Shown here one piece after another: positions 11,884-37,388 of a stretch of 64,000 nt of DNA. Numbering within the stretch: the stretch's first letter is position 1; every line of letters begins with the position of its first letter. The notes under the pieces are model-generated. The model was not told where the DNA came from and did not search any database. It saw nothing but the letters and a program-made list of their open reading frames with translations. The position numbers were made by a program, and so were the translations under genes. This DNA comes from a virus (Duplodnaviria > Heunggongvirae > Uroviricota > Caudoviricetes), in the IMG/VR virus record IMGVR_UViG_3300014205_000193; one strand, given 5' to 3'.

Positions 11884-11982
11884 TGGGACACCTCCAGTTA
11901 AGCTGTCAGTAATATATTATTTATTTCGTGAGTAATGAAATAGTTATTGTGCATAGTTTATTTTTTTATTATTTTAATCCTC
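11884..11982. promoter_or_regulatory. divergent promoter / strand-switch region
   Basis: AT-rich 100-bp gap separating the minus-strand block (1-11883) from the plus-strand block (11983 onward). Confidence 0.4.
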
Positions 11983-12522
11983 ATGATTGACTGGAATAAA
12001 CTTGTATTACAGGGTATTCAGCAGAAGCAGGAGGAATTCCTCCCGTTGCTGGATTTAATGACAACGAGGAACTACCATAAAGTTTTGGAGATAGGCTCCT
12101 ATTCTGGTGGAACTACTATGGCTTTTATGGCTGTTGCGGACCTGGTTGTATCTGTAGATAAGACCAAGCGGCACGACCTTAACCCTCACACTTTTATACA
12201 GGGATTAAGTGAAGATCCTGTAACCATTGACCAGGTGCGGAAGTATGGTATGTTTGATGTTTTATTCATTGACGGAGACCATACTCAGGCCGGGTGTATG
12301 GAAGATTATAAAAACTATTCTCGCATGGTTGCGCCTGAAGGTATTATTTGTTTTAATGGAATTTTAGATAGCCACGAAGCTCGCGACAAAGGTTGCTATG
12401 TCTCCGCAGTGTGGAATGAGATATGTACCAGATATCCCGAGGATATTATGGAGTTTGTTTCTCAGCCTATGGAGGAAGGTGGCATAGGTGTGCTATTCAA
12501 CGGTCGTATCAACATTATCTAA
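11983..12522 (+). CDS. class I SAM-dependent methyltransferase (Methyltransf_24/TylF-like)
   Basis: Motif I VLEIGSYSGGTT and VLFIDGDH. Start taken at the internal Met MIDWNKL; the longest ORF begins at 11947. Confidence 0.6.
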   Translation: MIDWNKLVLQGIQQKQEEFLPLLDLMTTRNYHKVLEIGSYSGGTTMAFMAVADLVVSVDKTKRHDLNPHTFIQGLSEDPVTIDQVRKYGMFDVLFIDGDHTQAGCMEDYKNYSRMVAPEGIICFNGILDSHEARDKGCYVSAVWNEICTRYPEDIMEFVSQPMEEGGIGVLFNGRINII

Positions 12523-16470: not shown

Positions 16471-16659
16471 ATGTTAAAATATAACACTGTTAAATTGCAG
16501 GCTTTAAAATGGGGTATTTCTGAAGGTCGGATCATTAAACTAATAGCTGATGGTCGTATTCCGACTGCTACTAGAATTGGTCGGGCATGGGTACTCCCCA
16601 ATGTTGTGAAAGACCCTCGTAAATGCCCTGGTTGGCAATTAGGGCGGAAAAGAAAATGA
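16471..16659 (+). CDS. small helix-turn-helix DNA-binding protein
   Basis: 62-aa ORF with an HTH-like segment LQALKWGISEGRIIKLIADGRIP. Confidence 0.4.
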   Translation: MLKYNTVKLQALKWGISEGRIIKLIADGRIPTATRIGRAWVLPNVVKDPRKCPGWQLGRKRK

Positions 16660-17699
16660 GAAAAAGAAATTTAATTAAAGACATTCCAGGATACAACGGA
16701 AAATATCGTATTGGTGAAGATGGGGTAGTATATAGGAGACAGATAACATACATCAAAGTAAAGGGTTTTTGTGATCCTACAGGGTACAAAAGTGTTCGAT
16801 TATATGCTGATGGGTATAGTGGTGTAAACATGTCTATCCATAGGCTTGTTGCAACTGTGTTTATAGAGAATAAACGCAACTTACCAATTGTACATCACAT
16901 TGACGGCAACCCTAGTAATAACTATAAAGGAAACTTGGAATGGTCTTCTTATTCACACAATAATAAGCATGCTTATGCGGTTAGTCGTGAGAAATATAAT
17001 CCGACTATTGATATTCCGAAAGAACAATTTGTTAATCTCCAGGATGCGAAGATAGCTAATCTCTCTAGTAAGCAAGAGTTATTTGTTCCATATTTGTACG
17101 ATCCAGCATACAAAGTCTCTAACAGAGGGCGTATACTATCTGTTAAGCAGGGTAAAACTAAACTACTGCGTCAGAAGCAGACTAGAGGTGGTTATTGTGC
17201 TCTTTCTCTACTGGTCACAGGCAGGGTTAAACATGTAAATATACATCGACTTGTCGCAGAACACTTTATTCCTAACCCAAATAATTTTAAAGTTGTTAAC
17301 CATAAGAATGGGATTAAGACAGATAACAGGGTTGAAAATTTAGAGTATTGTTCACATTCCTACAATACGCAACATGCTTGGAATACAGGTTTGATTACTC
17401 TTACACCAACCAAATTGGCTAAATTACATAAATATGGTTTTAAACCCAATAGGCAGCAGACCTACACCGAGAAATTAAAGCGATGCCGGAGTAACAACCC
17501 CTATCAAATTGCTGAGATATCTTCGAACGGGAGAATACTAAAAACCTGGTATTTTGCTAAAGATGTACAACAAGAGATGGGTATAAATAGGAAGTTGATC
17601 GGATTATGTGCTAAAGGAAAAATTACTGCTGTTGCAGGGAGAATATTTAGATATGTCCAAGAAGATAATTTGGGTGCTTTAAAGGTAGTGTCTGTATGA
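16656..17699 (+). CDS. HNH homing endonuclease with tandemly duplicated NUMOD4 + HNH_3 modules
   Basis: Two copies of the module: first IPGYNGKYRIGEDG ... HRLVATVFI..VHHIDGNPSNN..NLEW, second VPYLYDPAYKVSNRG ... HRLVAEHFI..VNHKNGIKTDN..NLEY. ATGA overlap with the upstream stop. Confidence 0.75.
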   Translation: MRKRNLIKDIPGYNGKYRIGEDGVVYRRQITYIKVKGFCDPTGYKSVRLYADGYSGVNMSIHRLVATVFIENKRNLPIVHHIDGNPSNNYKGNLEWSSYSHNNKHAYAVSREKYNPTIDIPKEQFVNLQDAKIANLSSKQELFVPYLYDPAYKVSNRGRILSVKQGKTKLLRQKQTRGGYCALSLLVTGRVKHVNIHRLVAEHFIPNPNNFKVVNHKNGIKTDNRVENLEYCSHSYNTQHAWNTGLITLTPTKLAKLHKYGFKPNRQQTYTEKLKRCRSNNPYQIAEISSNGRILKTWYFAKDVQQEMGINRKLIGLCAKGKITAVAGRIFRYVQEDNLGALKVVSV

Positions 17700-20066: not shown

Positions 20067-20348
20067 ATGGAATTTTTAACAGTGTATGCACAAGAACGGA
20101 TTACGGGAGAGGTGCATTATGATCTCCCGGTATTAATAAATGGGGAGGCTAACGGCTACACTGGCAATCCTATAAAATTAGATCCAGGAACCATTGATGT
20201 GTCTGTAGAGGCTGAGCATGCCGAGTCACACCACATACGACTGGAGAACACCACCGTGACTACTCCTCTTAAAGTAACTATTATGTTTGGGGATGAATAT
20301 CCTGAAATCCCGGATGTACCAGAATTTGACGGAGGTCCTAATGTTTAA
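20067..20348 (+). CDS. hypothetical protein
   Basis: 93-aa ORF with AGGAG RBS (ctacaggagtaattatg). Confidence 0.45.
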   Translation: MEFLTVYAQERITGEVHYDLPVLINGEANGYTGNPIKLDPGTIDVSVEAEHAESHHIRLENTTVTTPLKVTIMFGDEYPEIPDVPEFDGGPNV

Positions 20349-21729
20349 GAAGATTAAACGAGTGTTGCTGGTAGTCTTGACTTTTGGTTTATTGTATGGC
20401 CTGACCGGGGCATGTTGTTCCGCACAGTATAATATTGCAGGAAGAAGCAACCCTCCGTCACCAAAGCCAGTAGTTGAAGATGATCAGACCTTAATGTATA
20501 CTTGTTTTTCTGGTGGCGGCACTCGTGCTATGGCCATGGGTTATGAAGTTGTTGATGCCCTAGCTAAGGTTGATTATAAGGTTTATGTTAGAGGTCCTTC
20601 ACTTTTTGACACCACCACCCTACGTGAGGAAATAGACTATACATCAGGTGTCTCAGGAGGATCATTCGTAAGTGCGGCGCTAGCTGTTTACCCACAGGAA
20701 GAGTGGCCTATATTTTATCGTAAGGGGGTGTCCAGAGATATTCAAGGTAGCATTATTAAACATCTGCTGGCAGTTAAAAACTGGCCAAGATTACTGTCTC
20801 CTTATTATAACAGAACAGATTTAGCATCTGAGTTTTATGACCATCGGGTTTTTAAGAATTATACTTTTGGAGATTTGCCACAGAGGCCAGTGGTTTACAT
20901 CAACACAACAGTATTGGCTGCTCGATCGCACTTTGTTTTTACTGATGAATATTTTAGGTATATTGGTTCGGACATTTACAAATATCCTGTGGGCTTTGCT
21001 TGCGCAGCTTCCAGTGCCTTTCCTGTAGGTTTTGCCCCCATGACGCTGCGTAATTACATAAGAACCTATCAATCAGAAGATTCGCTCAGACTGAATGCAC
21101 ATTACAGATACGCGGTAGCTAATGAGCAAGCTGATATACAGCAGCATGCCTGGGCAGACTTATATCGATTTTTACGAGATACATCTAACCAGTGGTTGCA
21201 TGTATCTGATGGTGGTATTGCGGGGAACACAGGTATTGAGCGAGTATTAGACGCCTGGAGAAGTAACGGTATTATAAACCGAGCGCTGAATGACGTAAAA
21301 AATCCGCTGAAACGACTGATTTTTGTAGTTGTAAATGCAGGTGCAGGCGTCCCGGATGGTAGTTGTTCTAAGCGGATGGCGCCAAATGCCTTCAAGGTGT
21401 TAATGTATACCACTACCACTTCTATGGACCTAATGTCTGCCACCAGAATTGCGGAGTTAAAAGCACGGGTTGACGAATTGTGGACGATAATTCAACAGTC
21501 CAGAACTTTTGATGCTTCTCTGGCTAATTTGGAGAAACCATACTTAATAGAGATAAGTGCCCGAAACTTACCTGAAGGAGTGCTTAAGCAGGCTTTTAAT
21601 AACATACCTACGACATTTGACCTGCCCGCGGAGCAGTTATTGACTATTAGACAAGCAGTAGCAGAGTTGATGACTAATAACACAGAGTATCAAAGGTTAT
21701 TACAATCGATAGCAGCAGAGCGTAAATAA
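20341..21729 (+). CDS. patatin-like phospholipase with N-terminal signal peptide (possible lipoprotein)
   Basis: Oxyanion motif FSGGGTRAMAMGY, serine lipase motif GVSGGS (GxSxG), and DGG dyad motif HVSDGGIAGN. N-terminus MFKKIKRVLLVVLTFGLLYGLTGAC has a hydrophobic core followed by Cys. Confidence 0.7.
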   Translation: MFKKIKRVLLVVLTFGLLYGLTGACCSAQYNIAGRSNPPSPKPVVEDDQTLMYTCFSGGGTRAMAMGYEVVDALAKVDYKVYVRGPSLFDTTTLREEIDYTSGVSGGSFVSAALAVYPQEEWPIFYRKGVSRDIQGSIIKHLLAVKNWPRLLSPYYNRTDLASEFYDHRVFKNYTFGDLPQRPVVYINTTVLAARSHFVFTDEYFRYIGSDIYKYPVGFACAASSAFPVGFAPMTLRNYIRTYQSEDSLRLNAHYRYAVANEQADIQQHAWADLYRFLRDTSNQWLHVSDGGIAGNTGIERVLDAWRSNGIINRALNDVKNPLKRLIFVVVNAGAGVPDGSCSKRMAPNAFKVLMYTTTTSMDLMSATRIAELKARVDELWTIIQQSRTFDASLANLEKPYLIEISARNLPEGVLKQAFNNIPTTFDLPAEQLLTIRQAVAELMTNNTEYQRLLQSIAAERK

Positions 21730-21753
21730 ATTTAAACTAGAAAGGGCTACCAA

Positions 21754-22209
21754 ATGGCCAACACTTCAAGATTATCACTGCAATGTCAAGTATCTCAGTC
21801 ACTTATAAAAGCAGACAAGAAGAAGGGTGACTCTGTCATCGTTACTCGCTTTATGGGCTTAGGAACGGTGGGTCTTTTTAAGAACTTCAGTAAGCCTCTG
21901 GAAGACGTAGTGTTTAAGACAGTATGCTGGGAGACTGTCAAGACTGGGCAGATCGTCAACGTCTGGGTTATGATTTTAAGAGATACAAAGACGGGAATTG
22001 AGTTTGCCCGAATCAAGGGTTGTGTGATTGAGAATATTGTAATTAAATCTAAAGATGGGGAGTTAGAGGTAACAATATCAATTCAACATCGTCATAGTAC
22101 GCAGCAGCCTTCACTGGAGGCCGCCATTTCTGCTCTGGTCACACTTGAGTTAGAGCCAGATGTTGAGATTCTACCAGGGGCTATGGATGCCGAACCCGCT
22201 GAAGAGTAG
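21754..22209 (+). CDS. hypothetical protein
   Basis: 151-aa ORF. Confidence 0.5.
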   Translation: MANTSRLSLQCQVSQSLIKADKKKGDSVIVTRFMGLGTVGLFKNFSKPLEDVVFKTVCWETVKTGQIVNVWVMILRDTKTGIEFARIKGCVIENIVIKSKDGELEVTISIQHRHSTQQPSLEAAISALVTLELEPDVEILPGAMDAEPAEE

Positions 22210-22493
22210 GTTACCTGCAAGCTGCTCTCAGTGTCCGCATTGGCAGCTTAGTCAGGAGTTCGGATATAAGATATGTGAACTAGCAAACATCGCCGGGTCG
22301 CCTAAACATCTACCCGCCGAGTGTCCCCTGCATGGGCGGGATAGAGATGCTGCATATGCCTAGGGCACTATTGCAGTTTACGTGCAGAAGTATACTAAGA
22401 GATGTCATAATGACGACATTTATATGTTGTGTTCAATACCATTTACACACAAAACAATTAACGCGGGGTAAACCCGCTAAAGGAGAAAATCAG

Positions 22494-22757
22494 ATGAATT
22501 TCGGAAAAGCAATTGAAGAATTGAAACTTAGTAAAAAAGTATCTCGTCAGGGTTGGAATGGAAAAGGAATGTTTCTTGCATTAGCGTATCCTAATACTTC
22601 ATGCTGCAATGAGGCGATCAAATTTAATCATGGCTATGAAGGTGTATCGCCAATATTGGAAAACTTCATAGTTATGAAAACAGCGGATAATAAACTCGTT
22701 CCGTGGCTTGCAAGTCAAACAGATGTACTCGCAGAGGATTGGGGAATCATAGAATAA
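22494..22757 (+). CDS. DUF2829-family protein, Tad2-like candidate anti-Thoeris signal sponge
   Basis: 87 aa with AGGAG RBS. MNFGKAIEELKLSKKVSRQGWNGKGMF...LVPWLASQTDVLAEDW matches my memory of the DUF2829 consensus (MNFGEA.EALK.GKKV.R.GWNGKGM ... PW..SQ.D.LAEDW). Confidence 0.55.
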   Translation: MNFGKAIEELKLSKKVSRQGWNGKGMFLALAYPNTSCCNEAIKFNHGYEGVSPILENFIVMKTADNKLVPWLASQTDVLAEDWGIIE

Positions 22758-22784
22758 TTAAAGGCAGCGTGTAAATGGTACTAA

Positions 22785-22880
22785 ACACAACAACGGCAGG
22801 GCGTCATTAAAACGACGCCCGACCTGCTCTTCCGAGCAGTGCCGAAATGTTGGTTGCAATTTTGGCCGCAAGGCAAAGAA
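22785..22880 (+). ncRNA. repeated structured leader element, copy A (two hairpins + aaatgttggttg + cgcaaggca box)
   Basis: About 90-nt element aligning with 24135-24245. Hairpins GGGCGTC-attaaaac-GACGCCC and CTGCTC-ttcc-GAGCAG. Confidence 0.45.
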
Positions 22881-22889
22881 AGGAAAATT

Positions 22890-23204
22890 ATGTTTTTTAA
22901 AAACATTGCAAAAGAATTAGGCGAGAAATTTCTATGTCTACAGTCCGCTAATTGTTGTGACATAACAGAATGCAATAAGATAAAGTGGAACCCAAAAACA
23001 ATGAACGAATCAAAAAATATCGGTTACAATCACAAAGAGTATGTTTTTTCACATAGCATAGTAAATATTCATTCTGGAGATGAGTTTGTTTATTATAAAG
23101 AAGCGGTGCAAGACAAAAGGCAGCGTCCAAAAACAGTACGGGTGAGTACACCCCAACCAACAAAGGCAGTACGCAAGCCGAGTACGGCCAGCGCACATGC
23201 CTAA
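22890..23204 (+). CDS. hypothetical small protein
   Basis: 104-aa ORF MFFKNIAKELGEKF...; an RBS-like aaaggaaaa and the repeat element lie upstream. Confidence 0.4.
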   Translation: MFFKNIAKELGEKFLCLQSANCCDITECNKIKWNPKTMNESKNIGYNHKEYVFSHSIVNIHSGDEFVYYKEAVQDKRQRPKTVRVSTPQPTKAVRKPSTASAHA

Positions 23205-23244
23205 ATGTTGTGCAAAATACGGTCGCAATACAGAGGAGAAAAAA

Positions 23245-23421
23245 ATGGAAGATAAACCAGTTTACATATGTAACCACAATAATTGCTTACATCGTCCATG
23301 TACTGTTATTGGAAAAGTAAATGATAGAGAGCCTAAGTGGTGTCCGTTTGATAAGGGTTCGGCTGATTTTAAATTAAAGACAGCGACCGTACTTCGCACA
23401 ACAAATGCAAGTAGCAAGTAA
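23245..23421 (+). CDS. small Cys-rich protein
   Basis: MEDKPVYICNHNNCLHRPCTV..., AGGAG RBS, preceded by the aaatgttg motif. Confidence 0.35.
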   Translation: MEDKPVYICNHNNCLHRPCTVIGKVNDREPKWCPFDKGSADFKLKTATVLRTTNASSK

Positions 23422-23501
23422 ACAGCAACTTGCATAAATGTTGGTTGAAATAAGTTTTCGCGCAAGGCAATAGCGCACGCAAGCGTGCTAAAGGAGGAAA
23501 G

Positions 23502-23804
23502 ATGACTATTATTCCAACGCTCAAAGAAGTTAAAAAACATATGCCGACATCGGAGAACAAAAGAGAAGCTGAGTGTTTTTTGGCAGGCGTCCAAGAATGT
23601 CATGAATTTATAAAAAATAATTTACAAAACGCTGTAAACATTCTCCCGATACAGCTTAAACGAAAGTTTAAAATCTTTCCGTTGCCGCTACAATGGTGGG
23701 TTAGCGATTGTTCTGGACAAGGTAAGAACTTTTGTAAAACTACGTGGTGGTATGTGTTATCGGGAAAACATAAAAACCAAAATAAAGTTTTAGGAAGACC
23801 ATAA
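23502..23804 (+). CDS. hypothetical small protein
   Basis: AAGGAGG RBS; preceded by aaatgttggttgaaat...gcgcaaggca motif. Confidence 0.4.
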   Translation: MTIIPTLKEVKKHMPTSENKREAECFLAGVQECHEFIKNNLQNAVNILPIQLKRKFKIFPLPLQWWVSDCSGQGKNFCKTTWWYVLSGKHKNQNKVLGRP

Positions 23805-23870
23805 AGGCAGCGACATAGCTAAATGTTGTACGCAATACCGCGCAAGACATAAAACAAAAGGAGAATATGA

Positions 23871-24128
23871 ATGGCAAAAGAATTTTCAGTTCACAGTTCA
23901 AACATAGGAATCTATGTTGATGGTAATTTACAAGGGCTTGAGGATATTGTAAAGATGCTATACGCCTACGAAGAGGCTCTTGAGTTGATGTACACTAAGA
24001 TGGCTCCTGCTTATAAGCTGGCTGGTAAATTCAAGGCGTATCTTGAACACAATAAAGAAGTTATTTCTGGCCTCGAAAAAGAAATAGAAGAATTACAGAA
24101 AACAGTAGAACCAAAGGCAGCGCGGTAA
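23871..24128 (+). CDS. hypothetical small protein
   Basis: AGGAG RBS; preceded by aaatgttg...cgcaag motif. Confidence 0.45.
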   Translation: MAKEFSVHSSNIGIYVDGNLQGLEDIVKMLYAYEEALELMYTKMAPAYKLAGKFKAYLEHNKEVISGLEKEIEELQKTVEPKAAR

Positions 24129-24134
24129 AGCGTA

Positions 24135-24245
24135 CAACAACGGCATGGTGCCATTAAAACGGCACCAGACCCGCTCTTCCGAGCGGTGCCGAAATGTTGG
24201 TTGAAATTAAAATTGGCGCAAGGCAGTAACGCGCCTTACAGGCTC
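24135..24245 (+). ncRNA. repeated structured leader element, copy B
   Basis: Hairpins TGGTGCC-attaaaac-GGCACCA and CCGCTC-ttcc-GAGCGG. Base substitutions relative to copy A are compensated on the opposite strand of both stems. Confidence 0.45.
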
Positions 24246-24256
24246 GAAAGGAAAAG

Positions 24257-24562
24257 ATGGAAAAAATAAAAACAGATTCAGATGGAGTAAAGGCAGCGGT
24301 AGCTTTGTTAAGTAGAGAGCTAGATTTGATTTCAAGGATGCACATTGAGAGTGTTTGTCTTGCTGTGATAAACAGGTATAACGCCTCTGCGGATTCAGCC
24401 GAGCTGGTTAGTGTCGCGTATGATATGCTTGACCAAGTTATAAATGGTGGATTTGTTATAAGAATTTCTAAGTTAAAAATACTTTGCGAATCGCTATTAA
24501 AAGAAAAAAGTCCAGCATATATGAAAAACAATCTAAAAGAACTAAAGGCAGGCGCGAATTAA
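24257..24562 (+). CDS. hypothetical small protein
   Basis: 101-aa ORF with RBS gaaaggaaaag. Confidence 0.45.
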   Translation: MEKIKTDSDGVKAAVALLSRELDLISRMHIESVCLAVINRYNASADSAELVSVAYDMLDQVINGGFVIRISKLKILCESLLKEKSPAYMKNNLKELKAGAN

Positions 24563-24606
24563 ACATCAAGTAGTACGCAAAACCGCCGCAAGGCAAAAGG
24601 CGACAA

Positions 24607-24753
24607 ATGGATGATGACGAAGAAGATTATATAAACATACGGACTCACATTGTTTGCGGTATAATGGTTTACGACAGCATGCACGATATGATATTAGCTG
24701 GCCTTTGGGAGGACAAAAAAAATGAAGTACGAAAACTATTACAATCAATTTAA
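24607..24753 (+). CDS. small acidic protein (48 aa)
   Basis: Short plus-strand ORF MDDDEEDYINIRTHIVCG... preceded by cgcaaggca motif and aaaagg RBS. Preferred over the antisense ORF 24566-24784. Confidence 0.3.
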   Translation: MDDDEEDYINIRTHIVCGIMVYDSMHDMILAGLWEDKKNEVRKLLQSI

Positions 24754-24807
24754 GAGTGGCGAACCAAGAATTAGAACACATCACTACTTGATAACAAGGA
24801 GAAAATT

Positions 24808-25831: not shown

Positions 25832-26122
25832 ATGAAATTTCAAGAAGCATTCCAAGTTTTTACAAAAACATTAAAAAAAGATAAGGCACTTTATCAAGCC
25901 TATCAAGCCAATATTGCTATGGCTTACTATGATTGTGCCAGATGGGAAGGTAGTCGAGATTCTTCTGTCAAACGGCACGCTATTGGTAATAGGGCAGCTA
26001 CTTACTTCTTAGACCTGCTCTTACGACCCACCGCTAAGCCTTCTAAAGGTAAGCCTGCCACTAAACCAAATATTCCATTGACAGACGCTAAGCAGAAGAA
26101 GAGGGGTAAATGTACGAAATAA
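25832..26122 (+). CDS. hypothetical protein
   Basis: 96-aa ORF with AGGAGG RBS. Confidence 0.4.
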   Translation: MKFQEAFQVFTKTLKKDKALYQAYQANIAMAYYDCARWEGSRDSSVKRHAIGNRAATYFLDLLLRPTAKPSKGKPATKPNIPLTDAKQKKRGKCTK

Positions 26123-26967
26123 TTTACGCAGACCCGCCTTGGTCTTTTAGTAACAAGAAGACCGGTGGCTCCATGAAGAGTGGATCGGCCGCTCAATACA
26201 GCTGTATGAGTATTAAGGAGTTGGCCAGCTTGAATGTACAGTCCCTGTGTGCAGAGAATTGCGCCCTCTTTATGTGGTGGGTAGCGTCGATGCCTGATGA
26301 AGCATTACATGTTGCCCGGAGTTGGGGATTTAAGTTCAAGACCATGACCGAGTTTGTATGGAATAAGACCACAGTGCATGGTAAGCCTTTCTTTGGGATG
26401 GGATTCAGCACTCGGCAGGGGTCTGAGAGTTGTTTGCTGGCCGTTAAAGGAGACTTCAAGCGTATCTCTGCATCAGTCAGGGCTGTTATCACACACCCGA
26501 TTCTAGCCCACTCAGAGAAGCCTGACATCTTTAGGGATAGTATTGTTGAATTGATGGGGCCACTGCCTCGTTTGGAGATGTTTGGTCGTAAGGCAGTTCC
26601 CGGCTGGGATATGTTCGGCGATGAGGTTCCTGATTCTATAGAAATTCCTGCGGTAACACGCATTATTATGCCGGGTAAAATAAAAATAGGTGCGTATACC
26701 TTTGATAACAAGTGCCCACAAAGCTGTCCTGGTCATGGCGAGGGGGTTAGAGATTACGATTTATGCAGGTGGTGTCCCATATTCAACTGTGGACCAGAAG
26801 GAACCATTGTAGGCTGCTCCCCAAAAGAGTATCGTGTTGATTGGGCAGCTATATGGCATGCTTGGTTTGGTACGGATATGAAGGATTATCCGCAGTTATC
26901 CATAGTTAATATCGTGGACAGCTGTGCAAATGCTCTTACTGGAGGCCAGCATGAAAATGCTACATGA
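26110..26967 (+). CDS. MT-A70-family N6-adenine DNA methyltransferase with Cys-rich C-terminal extension
   Basis: DPPW catalytic motif (IIYADPPWSF) near the N-terminus. C-terminal ~130 aa contains CPQSCPGHGEG...CRWCPIFNCGPEG. Confidence 0.75.
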   Translation: MYEIIYADPPWSFSNKKTGGSMKSGSAAQYSCMSIKELASLNVQSLCAENCALFMWWVASMPDEALHVARSWGFKFKTMTEFVWNKTTVHGKPFFGMGFSTRQGSESCLLAVKGDFKRISASVRAVITHPILAHSEKPDIFRDSIVELMGPLPRLEMFGRKAVPGWDMFGDEVPDSIEIPAVTRIIMPGKIKIGAYTFDNKCPQSCPGHGEGVRDYDLCRWCPIFNCGPEGTIVGCSPKEYRVDWAAIWHAWFGTDMKDYPQLSIVNIVDSCANALTGGQHENAT

Positions 26968-27673
26968 TGATTGTTTACGGGCTATGCCCCACATAGCGGA
27001 TGCGGTGATAGATGCCATCATATGTGATTTGCCTTATGGTAGCACTAAATGCCCATGGGATATTTTGATACCTTTTGATAGTCTATGGAGTAGCTACAAG
27101 AGAATTTTAAAAGCAAATGGTGTAATTATTTTGTTTGGTCAAGAGCCTTTCAGTTCATTATTACGAATGTCTAATTTAGCCTGGTACAAGTATGACTATT
27201 ATTGGGAAAAAGAAAGATTAACAAATGTAATGCAAGTCAAGCGGCGTCCGGGTAAGGTGATAGAGACAATATCAGTTTTCTATAACAAACAACCTACGTA
27301 CATTCCTCAGATGGTAAAATATGCCGGGAAGATAGTTACAAATAAAGTTTTAGCAGGTAAATTAGGGACACTAATAGATCAGGGGGCTAAAAAAGTATAT
27401 GAATATAAAGATACTGGTTATAGGTATCCAACCCAGGTATTAAGATATAAACGAGATACCCTGGTAAGTAATCTGCACCCAACGCAGAAACCTCTGGCAT
27501 TATTGGAGGAATTGATTCGTACTTTTACTAAAGTTGGCGATTTGGTATTGGATAATTGCATGGGAAGTGGTACCACAGGGTTAGCTTGTAAAAATCTTGG
27601 CAGGAACTTTTTAGGTATAGAAAAAGATAAGCATTATTTTGAGATAGCCGTAGAAAGGCTTCGTGACCTATGA
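26951..27673 (+). CDS. beta-class DNA methyltransferase (N6-adenine or N4-cytosine, DPPY type)
   Basis: Motif IV AIICDLPYG near the N-terminus and motif I LVLDNCMGSGTTGLA near the C-terminus (beta permutation). GGAGG RBS before ATG at 26951. Confidence 0.75.
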   Translation: MKMLHDDCLRAMPHIADAVIDAIICDLPYGSTKCPWDILIPFDSLWSSYKRILKANGVIILFGQEPFSSLLRMSNLAWYKYDYYWEKERLTNVMQVKRRPGKVIETISVFYNKQPTYIPQMVKYAGKIVTNKVLAGKLGTLIDQGAKKVYEYKDTGYRYPTQVLRYKRDTLVSNLHPTQKPLALLEELIRTFTKVGDLVLDNCMGSGTTGLACKNLGRNFLGIEKDKHYFEIAVERLRDL

Positions 27674-28005
27674 TGATCTACACCTCTTATTATGCCAAGT
27701 ATAAAGGAGCTAATCCGGTGTCCATTGCAGGTCGCTGCCCTGTGTGGTACAAAGGTCGCGAGTATAAGAAGCTGGCACCTAAATATGATTTTTTTAAGAA
27801 ATATAAAGAAGACGGTAATGAGGCGGAGTACACGGCAGCTTTTCAGGCGCAGGTACTTGACCTGTTGGACCCGGCAACCGTCCTGTCTGAACTAGGAGAG
27901 AATGCTGTTTTATTGTGTTGGGAGAAGAGTGGGGAATTTTGCCATCGCCATCTCGTAGCTAAGTGGTTGCGGGATAAATTGGGGATTGAATGTACAGAGT
28001 TGTAG
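27670..28005 (+). CDS. DUF488-like protein
   Basis: C-terminal VLLCWEKSGEFCHRHLVAKWLRD resembles the DUF488 (YeaO-like) signature; from memory only. Confidence 0.4.
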   Translation: MMIYTSYYAKYKGANPVSIAGRCPVWYKGREYKKLAPKYDFFKKYKEDGNEAEYTAAFQAQVLDLLDPATVLSELGENAVLLCWEKSGEFCHRHLVAKWLRDKLGIECTEL

Positions 28006-34206: not shown

Positions 34207-34518
34207 ATGCCAAGAGTCAGTAAGATTTATTCACCAGGAATGTCCAAAGCACAGTTTAAAGCTCGTCTTAAGGAGCTGCAAAAGGAATTTAAGACCGATG
34301 GTGCTATCGGTGCGCAGTTTGGGATCTCTCGTCAGGCTATTCATCAGTTGCGAGAGAAGTGTAAGATTAAAGCGCTCACCAGCCGCAATGTTCCTCGTAA
34401 TCGGGAGATTACTAAACGTTACAATGGAGGAGTGCATCCATTCAAGTTGGCGCAGGATTATGAAATGAGTGTATCGCAGATATACCGCGTATTGAATAGT
34501 TCAAAAGGGAAGAAGTAG
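34207..34518 (+). CDS. small HTH DNA-binding protein
   Basis: GAIGAQFGISRQAIHQLREK HTH-like segment. Confidence 0.45.
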   Translation: MPRVSKIYSPGMSKAQFKARLKELQKEFKTDGAIGAQFGISRQAIHQLREKCKIKALTSRNVPRNREITKRYNGGVHPFKLAQDYEMSVSQIYRVLNSSKGKK

Positions 34519-35677: not shown

Positions 35678-36247
35678 ATGAAATTATCAACATATGCAAA
35701 AAAACTGGGTGTAACATATCGTACGGCCTGGAATCACTATCAGCAAGGAACTATACCTGGGGCATACGCTCTAGCAAATGGGACTATTATTGTACCCGAA
35801 GATAAAATATCAGCGATTGGATTAACGGCTACATATTCTCGCGTTTCTTCTTCTGAGAACAAAACTAACCTTGTAGCTCAGTCAAAGCGAGTGCAGGAAT
35901 TTTGTGCGGCTAAGGGTTGGGTTGTTTCTTTTGTTGTTGAGGAGTGTGGTAGCGGGCTTAACGATTCAAGAAAAAAATTAGAAAAGCTCTTGGATAATAA
36001 GCTGGTTACTCGTATTGTGGTAGAGCACAAGGATCGCCTTACGCGCTTTGGCTTTAATTATTTGAAAAAATTATGGCCTGGAGATATTGTCGTAATAAAT
36101 GAAGCGACGGAAGACGAAAAAGACTTAATGCAGGACTTCGTGTCTCTTGTTACGTCTTTCATGGCACGCCTTTATGGTCGAAGACGTAGTAGACGTGTAA
36201 CAGAAAAACTTATTAAAAAACTAAACGATGATTCAAAAAGCATATAA
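35678..36247 (+). CDS. tnpA: IS607-family transposase TnpA (serine recombinase with N-terminal MerR-like HTH)
   Basis: N-terminal HTH MKLSTYAKKLGVTYRTAWNHYQQG; catalytic-serine region YSRVSSSENK; resolvase-like core. Confidence 0.8.
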   Translation: MKLSTYAKKLGVTYRTAWNHYQQGTIPGAYALANGTIIVPEDKISAIGLTATYSRVSSSENKTNLVAQSKRVQEFCAAKGWVVSFVVEECGSGLNDSRKKLEKLLDNKLVTRIVVEHKDRLTRFGFNYLKKLWPGDIVVINEATEDEKDLMQDFVSLVTSFMARLYGRRRSRRVTEKLIKKLNDDSKSI

Positions 36248-37388
36248 ATTTAAAATTTATCCAAATGCTTCCCAAGCAGTTTTGTTAAACAAGACTTTTG
36301 GTGCTTGCCGTTATGCTTGGAACCAGTGGGTTGAAAATTTTAATAAGCCAAAAGAAGAAATCAAAGTTTTTAACACGCCCAAACAATTTAAAACTGACTT
36401 AGGCTGGATGAAGGAAATTAGCTCAGCCGCTATTCAACAAAAAGAGCAGGACTTCTTTGCGTTCAAGCAGCAGTTTTTTAACCAGAAGCGCAAAACTAAG
36501 TTAGGTAGACCAGCGTTTAAATCTCGTAAGAATAAGCAGTCTTATAGATTACCAAATCAGAAGTTTTACGTCGAAGACACTAAAATCAGGTTGGAAAAGA
36601 TTGGTTTCATTAAGGCTGTTTTTGATCGCGCAATTCCTGTTGGTGTGAAGTTTATAAATTGTACTATTAGTAAAGATGTAGTTGGTGACTTTTTTGTGTC
36701 TATCCTTGTGGAGCAAGATGTCCAACAGTTGCCTAAAACAGGAAAGACCATAGGTATTGACGTGGGGTTAAAGTCTTTTGCTGTATTGAGTGACGAGACT
36801 GTTATTGATAACCCAAAATTTTTCAGAGAGAACCAATCTGGATTAAAGCGGATTCAACAGCACTTGTCTCGCAAGGTCAAAGGTTCTAACCATTATAAAA
36901 AAACCAAACGACAGGCAGCAAGAGTTCAAAGAAAAACTGCAAGACAACGCAATTACTTCCTGCACAATGTCTCGTCCTATATTGTAAATAATTTTGATGT
37001 TATCGCAATAGAGGATTTAAACATTAAAGGAATGGTGAAAAATCATTGTCTTGCTAAGTCTGTTCATGACGCTTCTTGGTCTGAGTTCTTCAGACAACTT
37101 GATTACAAGGCCGCGTGGTACGGGAAGACATTGAGGGTGGTCGGAAGGTTTGAACCCACGTCCAAGACTTGTAACGTGTGTGGTTTCTATTATAAGGATA
37201 TGACTCTTGACATAAGAGAATGGGCTTGTCCTTGTTGCGAGACTGTACACGACAGAGATGTAAACGCAGCTAAAAACATTTTAAAACAATCCGTAAGAGT
37301 TGATGCGGAGCTACAGACGTGGAGTGAGTATCAGACTTTAGGAAACCAAACTGAAGCGACTCTCTGTGAAGTGTCGAGGGTTTTATGA
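36228..37388 (+). CDS. tnpB: TnpB (OrfB) RuvC-like RNA-guided nuclease family, IS200/IS605/IS607
   Basis: N-terminus KAYKFKIYPNASQ; RuvC-like IGIDVGLKSFAVLSD ... AIEDLNIKGM; C-terminal zinc finger CNVCGFYYK...CPCCETVHDRDVNAAKNI. Confidence 0.85.
   Translation: MIQKAYKFKIYPNASQAVLLNKTFGACRYAWNQWVENFNKPKEEIKVFNTPKQFKTDLGWMKEISSAAIQQKEQDFFAFKQQFFNQKRKTKLGRPAFKSRKNKQSYRLPNQKFYVEDTKIRLEKIGFIKAVFDRAIPVGVKFINCTISKDVVGDFFVSILVEQDVQQLPKTGKTIGIDVGLKSFAVLSDETVIDNPKFFRENQSGLKRIQQHLSRKVKGSNHYKKTKRQAARVQRKTARQRNYFLHNVSSYIVNNFDVIAIEDLNIKGMVKNHCLAKSVHDASWSEFFRQLDYKAAWYGKTLRVVGRFEPTSKTCNVCGFYYKDMTLDIREWACPCCETVHDRDVNAAKNILKQSVRVDAELQTWSEYQTLGNQTEATLCEVSRVL

Follow-up and report, generated by a model that had tools for sequence, protein, structure and literature searches.

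Our analysis of a 64,000-nucleotide stretch of viral DNA, hereafter the window, shows that positions 22402–24753 form an array of cassettes in which each gene, together with its leader and ribosome-binding site, lies between a 5′ arm and a complementary 3′ arm, with folded spacers separating one cassette from the next. This cassette arrangement matches no described family. The array genes are all co-oriented, and the neighbouring genes are encoded on the + strand for 50 kb. Within the cargo of the window array, the Tad2-like gene alone has an anti-defence annotation, the other genes being without a significant family match. The array is composed of the following features, in which U and D denote 5′ and 3′ arms, respectively.

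22402–22419, + strand: hairpin before the first 5′ arm (ATGTCATAATGACGACAT), akin to hairpin 1 of spacer copies A and B
22425–22448, + strand: U1, 5′ arm of cassette 1 (TGTTGTGTTCAATACCATTTACAC), complementary to D1 at 22 of 24 positions and identical in four genomes
22463–22477, + strand: leader hairpin of gene 1, just upstream of the ribosome-binding site
22494–22757, + strand: gene 1, Tad2-like (DUF2829; PF11195, E = 7.9e-25), 87 aa
22758–22792, + strand: 3′ box TTAAAGGCAGC and D1 (22769–22792) of cassette 1
22793–22847, + strand: spacer copy A, with closing stem 22794–22798/22840–22844, hairpin 1 at 22799–22820 and hairpin 2 at 22824–22839
22848–22875, + strand: U2 (22848–22869) and AAGGCA box of cassette 2
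22890–23204, + strand: gene 2, 104 aa, an orphan whose last ~29 codons come from 3′ arm and spacer
23116–23162, + strand: 3′ box and D2 (23123–23162) of cassette 2
23163–23205, + strand: spacer between cassettes 2 and 3, with closing stem AGGCA/TGCCT and a near-identical copy in the relative L157
23206–23226, + strand: U3, 5′ arm of cassette 3
23245–23421, + strand: gene 3, 58 aa, orphan
23376–23403, + strand: 3′ box (AAAGACAGCG) and D3 (23383–23403) of cassette 3, within the ORF
23405–23435, + strand: spacer hairpin between cassettes 3 and 4, ATGCAAGT...ACTTGCAT
23439–23469, + strand: U4 and AAGGCA box of cassette 4, without an intact partner arm
23475–23488, + strand: leader hairpin of gene 4 (GCACG CAAG CGTGC), with compensated changes in its L154 counterpart
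23502–23804, + strand: gene 4, 100 aa, orphan
23803–23823, + strand: 3′ box and collapsed remnant of 3′ arm and spacer (AAAGGCAGCGACATAGCTAAA)
23824–23843, + strand: U5, 5′ arm of cassette 5
23871–24128, + strand: gene 5, 85 aa, orphan
24113–24139, + strand: 3′ box and D5 (24120–24139) of cassette 5
24140–24194, + strand: spacer copy B, with hairpin 1 at 24146–24167 and hairpin 2 at 24171–24186
24195–24225, + strand: U6 and AAGGCA box of cassette 6, with an intact partner arm only in the relative L155
24257–24562, + strand: gene 6, 101 aa, orphan, with an internal AAAGGCAGCG at 24289–24298
24544–24595, + strand: decayed 3′ arm of cassette 6 (24552–24569) fused to the 5′-truncated 5′ arm of cassette 7 (24570–24589), then AAGGCA
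24607–24753, + strand: gene 7, 48 aa, the last gene after an arm-type leader

The 5′ arm begins with (T/C)GTTG (TGTTG...GC), ends with GC and is followed by AAGGCA, while the 3′ arm follows AAAGGCA, begins with GC and ends with CAACA. Pairing extends over 20–26 nt between the two arms of one gene, and the arm sequence is gene-specific. The 15 distinct arm pairs of the window and four related phage genomes comprise 313 Watson-Crick pairs and, read on the + strand, no G·U pair; position 12 is never Watson-Crick, being A·C in 13 arm pairs and A·A in the other two. All but one of the 39 arm mismatches are A·C or A·A on the + strand, and hence G·U or U·U, that is, G/T-only, on the − strand. D2 is split at the central loop by an extra AGTA-loop hairpin (23140–23153), and a similar insert is found in L157.

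That each arm is matched to its own partner is evident from several comparisons. For the first 12 of the 15 pairs, complementarity is 0.90 between cognate and 0.48 between non-cognate arms, and for genes 1, 3 and 5 RNAduplex yields −28.6 to −32.9 kcal/mol for cognate arms and only −7.3 to −18.0 kcal/mol for non-cognate arms in the same rows. The arm pairs of these three genes are also three of the four longest inverted repeats (at most 1.5 kb apart) in the 64 kb, and an unconstrained fold of the 2.2-kb transcript contains their long-range helices, using 21 of 24, 17 of 21 and 18 of 20 arm positions, respectively. An unbiased best-complement scan of every 5′ arm detected downstream partners for all nine arms of L155m, three of the five of L154 and, within the window, those of genes 3 and 5, with scores of 24–43 versus shuffle maxima of 16–26. 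The scan required an AAGGCA box after the 5′ arm, which the gene 1 arm lacks; its partner D1 was established outside the scan by the other repeat and duplex comparisons. Intact partner arms are lacking for genes 4 and 6 of the window, and L154-d is likewise decayed or non-cognate. The two ends of each intergenic element, for their part, share only GCG/CGC and CAACA/TGTTG; the long complementarity spans the gene.

The arms of gene 1 are under purifying selection: they are identical at 46 of 46 positions in four genomes, in which the coding sequence is 80–92% and the leader 78–93% identical. The arms belong to the array and not to the gene: a Tad2 homologue that is not part of an array lacks arms and has an ordinary terminator. 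Other origins of the arms were considered. Target-site duplication upon insertion into a palindrome, as a cause of the central mismatch, fits only the A·A/A·A configuration (2 of the 15 pairs). Invertible segments were rejected, since every cassette carries its gene on the + strand, always with A in the 5′ arm and C or A in the 3′ arm. Partial likenesses to a CRISPR-repeat mimic, to Xer/dif and to an IHF site are not supported by the variable arm sequences.

The spacers provide further evidence for a folded molecule. A first-pass annotation, made from the letters of the window, had described two hairpin-bearing copies with compensated stem changes, and both statements hold: copy A (22787–22861) and copy B (24134–24208) are 88% identical across 75 nt, and their 66-nt cores (22787–22852 and 24134–24199) differ at eight positions, all eight belonging to four compensated pairs, of which hairpin 1 has three and hairpin 2 one. 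Both copies share one three-helix fold, in which the outer CAACA/TGTTG helix and a 5-bp closing stem, CGGCA/TGCCG, are accompanied by hairpin 1 and hairpin 2, with folding energies of −33.0 and −32.6 kcal/mol and z-scores of −5.9 and −6.2 for A and B, respectively; none of 200 shuffles folds as well. When three further copies from a related phage were added, 9 of the 13 hairpin pairs were found changed on both sides and none on one side only. For this spacer type (five copies), 99.1% of cells are paired, and the observed covariation was reached by 0 of 500 shuffles. In the spacer with a three-way junction, substitutions affect both partners in 17 of 24 pairs. Despite the variation of the stems, conservation is seen in the unpaired junction strands (CCCAAAT and ACTTC) and in the loops (TTCC and ATTAAAAC), which points to selection acting on a folded molecule.

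Searching the 64 kb with a covariance model derived from the copies recovered only A, B and a weaker third match at 23157–23210, and copies A and B are one of several interchangeable spacer types located between gene-bracketing arm pairs. The first-pass annotation rightly saw a structure under selection in an island of small co-oriented genes, and missed the main feature, that is, the arms around each gene. Among Rfam covariance models, the best match was preQ1-II (25.8 bits versus a threshold of 47), reflecting a hairpin followed by AAAGGAGAAAA, with all others at E ≥ 0.7, and ARAGORN found no tRNA in the three relatives scanned (L152–L154). A likeness of hairpin 2 to rrn/lambda boxA (YGCTCTT) was rejected, since the stretch concerned takes part in base pairing, covaries, and in relatives is replaced by CTGACC or CTGGCT.

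The boxes noted in the first-pass annotation are real, and they are the ends of longer features, namely the arms. Box AAATGTTG has eight matches in the window, five of them at 22845–24199 and all five on the + strand; all five exact matches of AAAGGCAGCG fall within 22760–24298, and with up to one mismatch this box has 12 matches versus 3.2 expected, a number reached by none of 100 shuffles; box CGCAAGGCA has its four exact matches, plus one with a single mismatch, within 22867–24595. A 5′ arm runs from the aaatgttg box at its start to the cgcaaggca box at its end; its reverse complement is located downstream of the same gene, beginning just past the aaaggcagcg box and ending with caaca. The truncated elements described before further small genes need two small corrections: in the one preceding the gene at 23245 the box is CGCAATACA, and the one spanning 24563–24607 lacks AAATGTTG, being a deletion fusion of a 3′ arm with the next 5′ arm.

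Comparison with related phages shows that modules have been swapped exactly at conserved boundaries. Cargo is unrelated between arrays except for one Tad2-like anti-defence gene. For the gene 1 cassettes of four genomes, homology stops at CAACA and the downstream spacers differ. L159 and L160 share 470 nt at 100% identity, beginning exactly where a 5′ arm begins, and to the left of that point they are unrelated. One outer helix is found combined with four unrelated, perfectly complementary inner helices, identical arm pairs enclose different genes (L154-b and L173-b; L155m-B and L155m-5), and a single Tad2 gene occurs in two different arm pairs; the breakpoints fall at conserved motifs of 5–12 nt. 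The genes upstream of the arrays are a patatin gene, a NinG gene and a RusA-like ORF, respectively, and no protein is common to the array neighbourhoods. Box pattern scans of IMG/VR, of one genome per species and of JGI metagenomes returned only chance matches inside coding regions, these first patterns having required AAAT before GTTG where relatives often have AACGTTG. Anchoring on neighbour proteins in IMG/VR yielded no close relative, the patatin relative L134 (67% identity) has neither an array nor gene-flanking repeats, and BLAST against cultured phages retrieved cargo gene fragments only.

As best explanation we tentatively suggest, with somewhat less than even confidence, that the genes share a polycistronic transcript on which each of them is insulated, and thereby made portable, by RNase III-type stems and folded spacers. 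The whole island would be transcribed as a single polycistronic + strand RNA. On it, the arms of each gene would pair into a roughly two-turn helix opened in the middle by an internal loop, which is how an RNase III-type processing signal is built. The stems, by being processed or simply by folding, would together with the spacer and leader hairpins provide each cistron with defined, protected 5′ and 3′ ends, making its expression independent of its neighbours, and the short conserved boundary motifs would serve as crossover points, so that any gene may fit any socket and still be expressed. Bacterial RNase III requires a duplex of about two helical turns, the early processing signals of T7 consist of two ~10-bp stems around an internal loop, and 16S and 23S rRNAs are excised from long-range stems made by their own flanks. 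The duplex predicted here comprises 20–26 bp with a defect at positions 11–12, and it is present in the minimum-free-energy fold of the 2.2-kb RNA. In line with a single transcript, neither a sigma-70-like promoter in any intergenic element nor a plus-strand terminator was found within 22400–24620, and the hairpins are not followed by T runs. The Shine-Dalgarno-adjacent leader hairpin of gene 1, moreover, covaries between genomes (GCGGG/CCCGC, GCAGC/GCTGC and GCGGC/GCCGC), and such covariation makes sense only on mRNA, given the position of the hairpin. The 5′-UTR or processing role offered in the first-pass annotation is still the best reading of the element, and its alternative of a phage-specific promoter is not supported.

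Several observations run against the RNA reading. A helix in + strand RNA is expected to tolerate G·U and to avoid A·C, and the absence of G·U among the 313 arm pairs is compatible with such a reading, given the A·C bias, only if the open A/C internal loop is itself selected. The apex of hairpin 1 (A·C beside a covarying pair), the loop of hairpin 2 (TTCC/TTTC, which on the − strand is GGAA/GAAA and thus of GNRA type) and one upstream hairpin in L153 all read better on the − strand. In several cassettes, for example those of genes 2 and 3, the 3′ arm lies within the ORF, where ribosomes would melt the helix, and the lack of an intact partner arm for genes 4 and 6 likewise counts against RNA function.

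The main rival, which we regard as unlikely, places the fold in single-stranded DNA: arms and spacers of the bottom (template) strand would form bulged hairpins resembling the attC sites of integrons, recognized by structure by a host or distant recombinase or guiding template switching, so that modules distal to a stem level are exchanged whole. It would account for the G/T-only character, on the bottom strand, of all arm mismatches but one, and for local hairpins that are nearly pure Watson-Crick without wobble intermediates, as suits DNA hairpins. The array itself consists of promoterless, co-oriented small ORFs with unrelated cargo, and its boxes resemble integron core sites: 5′ arms open with a GTTRRRY-like sequence and 3′ arms close with an RYYYAAC-like one. 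Among the 7-mers compared with GTTRRRY, GTTAGGT, GTTAGGC and GTTGGGC fit, and GTTGGTT, GTTGTGY and GTTGTAC are each off at one position. AAC...GTT in the polarity of attC flanks every spacer, with unpaired spacers of 1 nt and 3–8 nt versus ~5 and 5 in attC. The nested, symmetric exchange described above (inner-helix swaps, arm pairs shared by different genes, Tad2 in two arm pairs) and the start of the L159/L160 identity exactly at the first base of a 5′ arm speak for it as well. CALINs, which are attC clusters, lack an integrase by definition. Such integrase-less clusters have been described from phages (PMC9892861). However, Pfam scans of the ~70 window ORFs detected neither a tyrosine recombinase nor an HUH enzyme, the L155 gene calls contain no Phage_integrase-type protein (L154 and L173 were inspected by eye only), and the array neighbourhoods have no protein in common. 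Crossover only at G|TT of R′ would need the downstream spacer to be inherited with the gene, which it is not; the complementarity of cassette start and end covers 20–26 nt and not 6–7, and the gene-bracketing helix is opposite in polarity to attC, with GTTG at its 5′ end. Finally, the Shine-Dalgarno-adjacent leader hairpins have no role in a single-stranded DNA model, and dsDNA phages offer no obvious stage with 300–900 nt of bottom strand single-stranded. It is also possible, although we would not count it as likely, that the array represents a phage-own cassette platform operating without integron integrases. In single-stranded nucleic acid the arms would pair into a nested "socket" whose stem guides a symmetric exchange, carried out by template switching or by a structure-specific enzyme of the host, and the same stems would double as expression insulators; everything distal to a conserved stem level would swap as one unit, at three levels given by the outer end, position 11–12 and the AAGGCA base. 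If true, this would be an unrecognized mechanism for rapid turnover of anti-defence genes.

The remaining alternatives appear to be less probable still. The motifs might merely provide short stretches of homology at which phages undergo relaxed homologous recombination, as in PeSLs, the complementarity being functionless: template-switch correction of quasi-palindromes would keep hairpin arms complementary, and surviving recombinants would be symmetric by chance. Breakpoints at the 5–12-nt motifs, clean double substitutions in local hairpins without wobble intermediates (as such correction would give) and the decayed or non-cognate arms of window genes 4 and 6 and of L154-d accord with this rather improbable view. 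Yet template switching is implausible across 150–900 nt, the position-12 mismatch is kept, not corrected, in 15 of 15 arm pairs, the arms of gene 1 show no change where synonymous sites differ by 8–20%, the arm helix length is confined to 20–26 nt, and junction strands and loops are kept although the stems vary. Alternatively, the cassette genes might be controlled or silenced by an antisense (− strand) RNA that spans the island and uses G·U and U·U pairs and GNRA loops. The − strand duplexes of genes 1 and 3 are indeed fully paired (−49.1 versus −38.4 and −37.6 versus −30.1 kcal/mol), the hairpin 2 loops become GGAA/GAAA, and some leader hairpins look terminator-like on the − strand, with T-rich tails after them. 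This possibility is nonetheless quite improbable: a conserved − strand promoter was not found, the sole strong − strand promoter-like site (22775–22746) not being conserved in L152, all neighbouring genes within 50 kb are on the + strand, and we know of no function for an antisense RNA with gene-sized loops. Very improbable indeed is a phage-specific promoter before each gene formed by the AAATGTTG...CGCAAGGCA element, the first option of the earlier annotation. The element does recur 20–60 nt before start codons, and the 5′ arm contains TTG, but the cognate reverse complement downstream and the compensated variation between the boxes would be unexplained; there are no sigma-70-like sites in the intergenic elements (+ strand, 22400–24620), the box spacing varies (12–17 nt), and a phage RNA polymerase was not detected, the 2956-aa protein matching only an ADP-ribosyltransferase domain and no solved structure. 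For lack of a detected polymerase, an N4-type hairpin promoter for a virion RNA polymerase was likewise rejected, as was a single-strand (Frpo-type) promoter, which would need longer stems to accommodate −35 and −10 boxes.

When compared with known systems, the array resembles integrons, which likewise consist of promoterless, co-oriented small ORFs of unrelated cargo with AAC...GTT core-like boxes around intergenic folds, have boundary elements conserved in structure and variable in sequence with a bottom-strand mismatch bias, show complementarity between the cassette start and the site at its own 3′ end, and include anti-defence-type genes. In contrast to integrons, no integrase was found here, complementarity of 20–26 nt (versus 6–7 nt) encloses the gene, the intergenic fold is not inherited with the upstream gene, the full RYYYAAC/GTTRRRY consensus is found at only a minority of sites, and there are extra AAGGCA boxes on both sides and an invariant position-12 mismatch. 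The RNase III signals of T7 and rRNA likewise place between polycistronic units a duplex some two turns long, often opened by an internal loop at its centre, and rRNA stems are also made by sequences on both sides of the unit. The T7 sites, however, are local hairpins, whereas the stems considered here span a gene and lack G·U, and cleavage is predicted from geometry. To our knowledge, no phage operon is known in which successive protein-coding cistrons each lie in their own long-range stem. In pdif (XerC/XerD) modules of Acinetobacter plasmids, accessory genes are located between inversely oriented sites in series and shuffled between replicons; these sites are conserved 28-bp protein-binding sites shared by adjacent modules, whereas the arms described here are variable in sequence, complementary only to their own partner and two per gene.

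The promoter-early stem-loops (PeSLs) of T4-type phages combine a sigma-70 promoter with a terminator stem-loop as direct repeats (PMC2839356, PMC4122927). They resemble our elements as short repeated non-coding modules beside small non-essential ORFs in variable regions, at breakpoints of gene replacement, and differ in that promoter and + strand terminator are absent here and a gene-specific inverted repeat surrounds each gene. Correia (CREE/NEMIS) and ERIC elements are intergenic inverted repeats co-transcribed with their neighbours, whose paired ends can be RNase III substrates altering mRNA stability (e.g. PMC2649163); their repeats are the ends of one short fixed non-coding insert, and not, as here, gene-specific sequences bracketing a gene.

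No part of a phage genome changes faster than its small accessory and anti-defence genes, and their exchange and expression are poorly understood. The array offers a concrete, testable architecture in which every gene is provided with a separate pair of complementary arms, whose defect one helical turn from the end never varies, and conserved boundary motifs mark the exact points at which related phages differ. If the stems act on RNA, they would be natural equivalents of the ribozyme or Csy4 insulators of synthetic biology; if they act on DNA, they would constitute an integron-like cassette system native to phages. Either way, the motifs provide a search handle for new anti-defence cargo in metagenomes.

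Genes 1, 3 and 5 of a row of seven small genes in the window are each enclosed by long-range inverted repeats, and a repeat search of the whole window puts all three in the top four, by length, of its inverted repeats within 1.5 kb. Upstream of each gene lies a 5' arm that starts with (T/C)GTTG, finishes with GC and is followed by AAGGCA; downstream, AAAGGCA precedes a 3' arm that starts with GC and finishes with CAACA. The short boxes described in the first-pass annotation are real, and are enriched in this region and on the plus strand, but they are not stand-alone elements: aaatgttg is the start of the 5' arm, cgcaaggca is its end joined to AAGGCA, and aaaggcagcg, which does recur at gene ends, is the AAAGGCA box together with the opening nucleotides of the 3' arm.

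Features of the array in the window
22400-24760, plus strand: seven small genes (genes 1-7), consistent with the gene calls made in the source collection
22494-22757, plus strand: gene 1, with a Tad2-like (DUF2829, anti-Thoeris) product
22787-22861: spacer copy A
23116-23204 and 23376-23421: 3' arm and spacer repeats encoding C-terminal protein tails
23140-23153: optional extra hairpin in a 3' arm
23157-23210: weaker relative of the spacer copies
24134-24208: spacer copy B
24289-24298: exact AAAGGCAGCG box inside gene 6

The arms vary from gene to gene, yet each complements its own partner. Cognate duplexes of genes 1, 3 and 5 have predicted energies of -28.6, -30.1 and -32.9 kcal/mol, compared with -7.3 to -18.0 kcal/mol for non-cognate pairs in the same rows, and the helices of all three genes are predicted when the 2.2-kb RNA is folded without constraints. 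In gene 2 the pairing runs through an arm split by an extra hairpin, while genes 4 and 6 have lost the partner arm. Across 15 distinct arm pairs from the window and its relatives, with helices of 20-26 nt, we count 313 Watson-Crick pairs, 23 A.C, 15 A.A, 1 G.G and 0 G.U. No arm pair has a Watson-Crick match at position 12, counted from the outer end: 13 of the 15 carry A.C there and the other 2 A.A. Some 3' arms carry the extra hairpin, also seen in a related contig (L157, 1714-1735), at their central loop, and the arm helix then becomes a three-way junction; the hairpin's AGTA loop is conserved while its stem covaries (GGGTG/CACCC versus GGCGG/CCGCC). The AAAGGCAGCG box in gene 6 lies 32 nt past the start codon with no recognisable arm following, and may be a remnant of a former cassette boundary. 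In the window and in L157 (1697-1784), several cassette ORFs have C-terminal tails encoded by 3' arm and spacer repeats; as the tail ...TKAVRKPSTAS(A/V)HA is common to two unrelated proteins, these ORFs extend into the repeats rather than stop ahead of them.

Between cassettes lie folded spacers. That two hairpin-bearing copies differ by compensated stem substitutions, as had been claimed from the sequence alone, is borne out: copies A and B share 88% identity over 75 nt, and the 8 positions that differ in their 66-nt core form four compensated pairs, 8/8 within stems. Their common fold comprises an outer helix (CAACA/TGTTG), a closing stem (CGGCA/TGCCG), a 7-bp hairpin 1 with loop ATTAAAAC, a GAC linker and a 6-bp hairpin 2 with loop TTCC, and is more stable than any of 200 shuffles (z-scores -5.9 and -6.2). 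When three copies of one related phage are added, the 13 hairpin pairs show 9 two-sided and 0 one-sided changes, 99.1% of cells are paired, and none of 500 shuffles matches the observed covariation. A covariance model of these copies, run against the 64-kb window, retrieves both copies and the weaker relative, and nothing more. A three-way junction with loop TTCC or TTTCA forms the second spacer type, in which 17 of 24 predicted pairs have changed on both sides; its stems vary while the unpaired strands GYTC, CCCAAAT and ACTTC are conserved.

Selection on the arms is seen at gene 1, whose arms (46 nt) are identical across four genomes in which coding identity is 80-92% and leader identity 78-93%. 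The leader hairpin adjoining the Shine-Dalgarno sequence covaries (GCGGG/CCCGC, GCAGC/GCTGC, GCGGC/GCCGC). No Rfam family is found at threshold; a preQ1-II riboswitch match over this leader (window 22401-22493, 25.8 bits; related contig L153 42-127, 23.7 bits; gathering score 47) probably reflects just the hairpin plus AAAGGAGAAAA.

Relatives of the array were gathered by way of the gene 1 protein, from its variants and homologues (L152, L153, L155-L157, L159, L160), and through relaxed motif scans of IMG/VR (L154, L173), with L155-L157 being a single genome, merged as L155m; the window itself is part of contig k141_2474311 (236,752 bp; ENA assembly ERZ27247358). These contigs share the architecture, although their sequences are largely different. 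An unbiased best-complement scan of every 5' arm finds a downstream partner for 9/9 arms of L155m and 3/5 of L154, with scores of 24-43 versus 16-26 for shuffles. Cultured phages yielded no true relative of the array, and most pattern scans were likewise empty. In a further contig, L158, the Tad2 homologue is in no array and has no arms. L134, related via the flanking patatin gene, has a terminator at the site of the window's array: a block conserved in relatives, comprising a patatin-like phospholipase, a 151-aa protein and a 67-aa cysteine-rich ORF (window 20341-22363; L134 10001-12100), is closed there by a strong terminator.

The cassettes are exchanged. Gene 1's has differing neighbours in four genomes, with homology spanning GTTG to CAACA, and L159 and L160 share 470 nt at 100% identity, starting at the very first base of a 5' arm, to the left of which they are unrelated. 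Four inner helices that are unrelated to one another, each perfectly complementary, are combined with one and the same outer helix and its central AAAA/CTTC motif (window gene 3, L154-b, L155m-3 and L159). The same arm pair encloses different genes (L154-b/L173-b; L155m-B/L155m-5), and the Tad2 gene with its leader is found inside two distinct arm pairs. Exchange is hence nested and symmetric, with three conserved levels at the outer end, in the centre and at the AAGGCA base. Cargo is unrelated between arrays, except for the Tad2-like gene and the repeat-encoded peptide tails. Given the Tad2-like gene here and an Acb2/Tad1-hairpin gene in the equivalent small-gene island of a related contig (P0004), the island is probably an anti-defence hotspot.

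Two-turn duplexes with an internal loop are the signal geometry of RNase III, as in the T7 early region and in rRNA operon stems, and the arm helix, with its central internal loop, matches it. We therefore tentatively favour a model in which the arms act at the RNA level, in the processing or insulation of cistrons: the array would be transcribed as one polycistronic plus-strand RNA on which the arms of each gene pair, and arm helix, spacer and leader hairpins would together give defined, protected cistron ends and expression independent of context, with conserved boundary motifs permitting exchange by recombination. The pairing, the selection on it, where it lies with respect to ribosome-binding site and stop codon, and the exchange are shown; co-transcription, cleavage and stabilisation of the cistrons are the conjectural steps of this model. 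Scans of the array detected no plus-strand terminator and, in its intergenic elements, no sigma-70-like site, which argues against the earlier suggestion that the boxes are promoters; tRNAs were absent from the three relatives scanned (L152-L154).

The main difficulty for an RNA-level role is a strand asymmetry. With one exception, the arm mismatches involve A and C only on the plus strand, where G.U is never seen, and thus G and U only on the minus strand; the minus-strand duplexes of genes 1 and 3 pair throughout, and the hairpin 1 apex and hairpin 2 loop (GGAA/GAAA on the minus strand) also read better there. This fits either an open A/C loop selected on the mRNA or a folded bottom strand, be it DNA or antisense RNA. 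A DNA-level role, with boundaries resembling integron attC sites, would be such a case, and attC clusters have been reported in phages (PMC9892861), but we consider this unlikely: no integrase was found among the ~70 window ORFs, the spacer is not inherited together with the gene, and the complementarity of 20-26 nt departs from that of attC. T4-type promoter-early stem-loops (PeSLs; PMC2839356, PMC4122927) have the shuffling role in common with the cassette boundaries and differ in anatomy.

Neither a tyrosine recombinase nor an HUH enzyme was found among those ORFs. The sole recombinase belongs to an IS607-like pair (35678-37388), ~11 kb downstream of the array, in which a serine recombinase (Resolvase domain) overlaps TnpB (OrfB_IS605, Cas12f1-like TNB); a similar pair occurs in a related contig. 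Array contexts differ as well: the upstream gene is a patatin in the window, NinG in L155 and an ORF read as RusA-like in L154, and a gene downstream in L173 is read as a small terminase subunit. Hence no cis-encoded partner protein is evident. Elsewhere in the window, an HNH/NUMOD4 endonuclease gene (16623-17699), between a DEAD helicase and the following gene, is missing at that position in two related contigs and is likely a homing-endonuclease insertion. Several orphan DNA methyltransferases (Methyltransf_24, MT-A70, N6_N4_Mtase) and a DUF488 protein share the array's strand (11947-12522, 26110-27673, 27670-28005). A Mor-family transcription activator (34207-34518), with a Mor-like counterpart in L134, is downstream of the early region, and a 2956-aa polyvalent protein (45459-54329) matches no solved structure by sequence and has just one recognised domain, an ART-PolyVal ADP-ribosyltransferase.

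The cassette boundaries are a real, statistically solid and unannotated structured family in phage accessory islands, and the known kinds that come nearest to them are processing stems and cassette-boundary repeats. They pose two specific puzzles: the defect always present at position 12, and an exchange that is both nested and symmetric.
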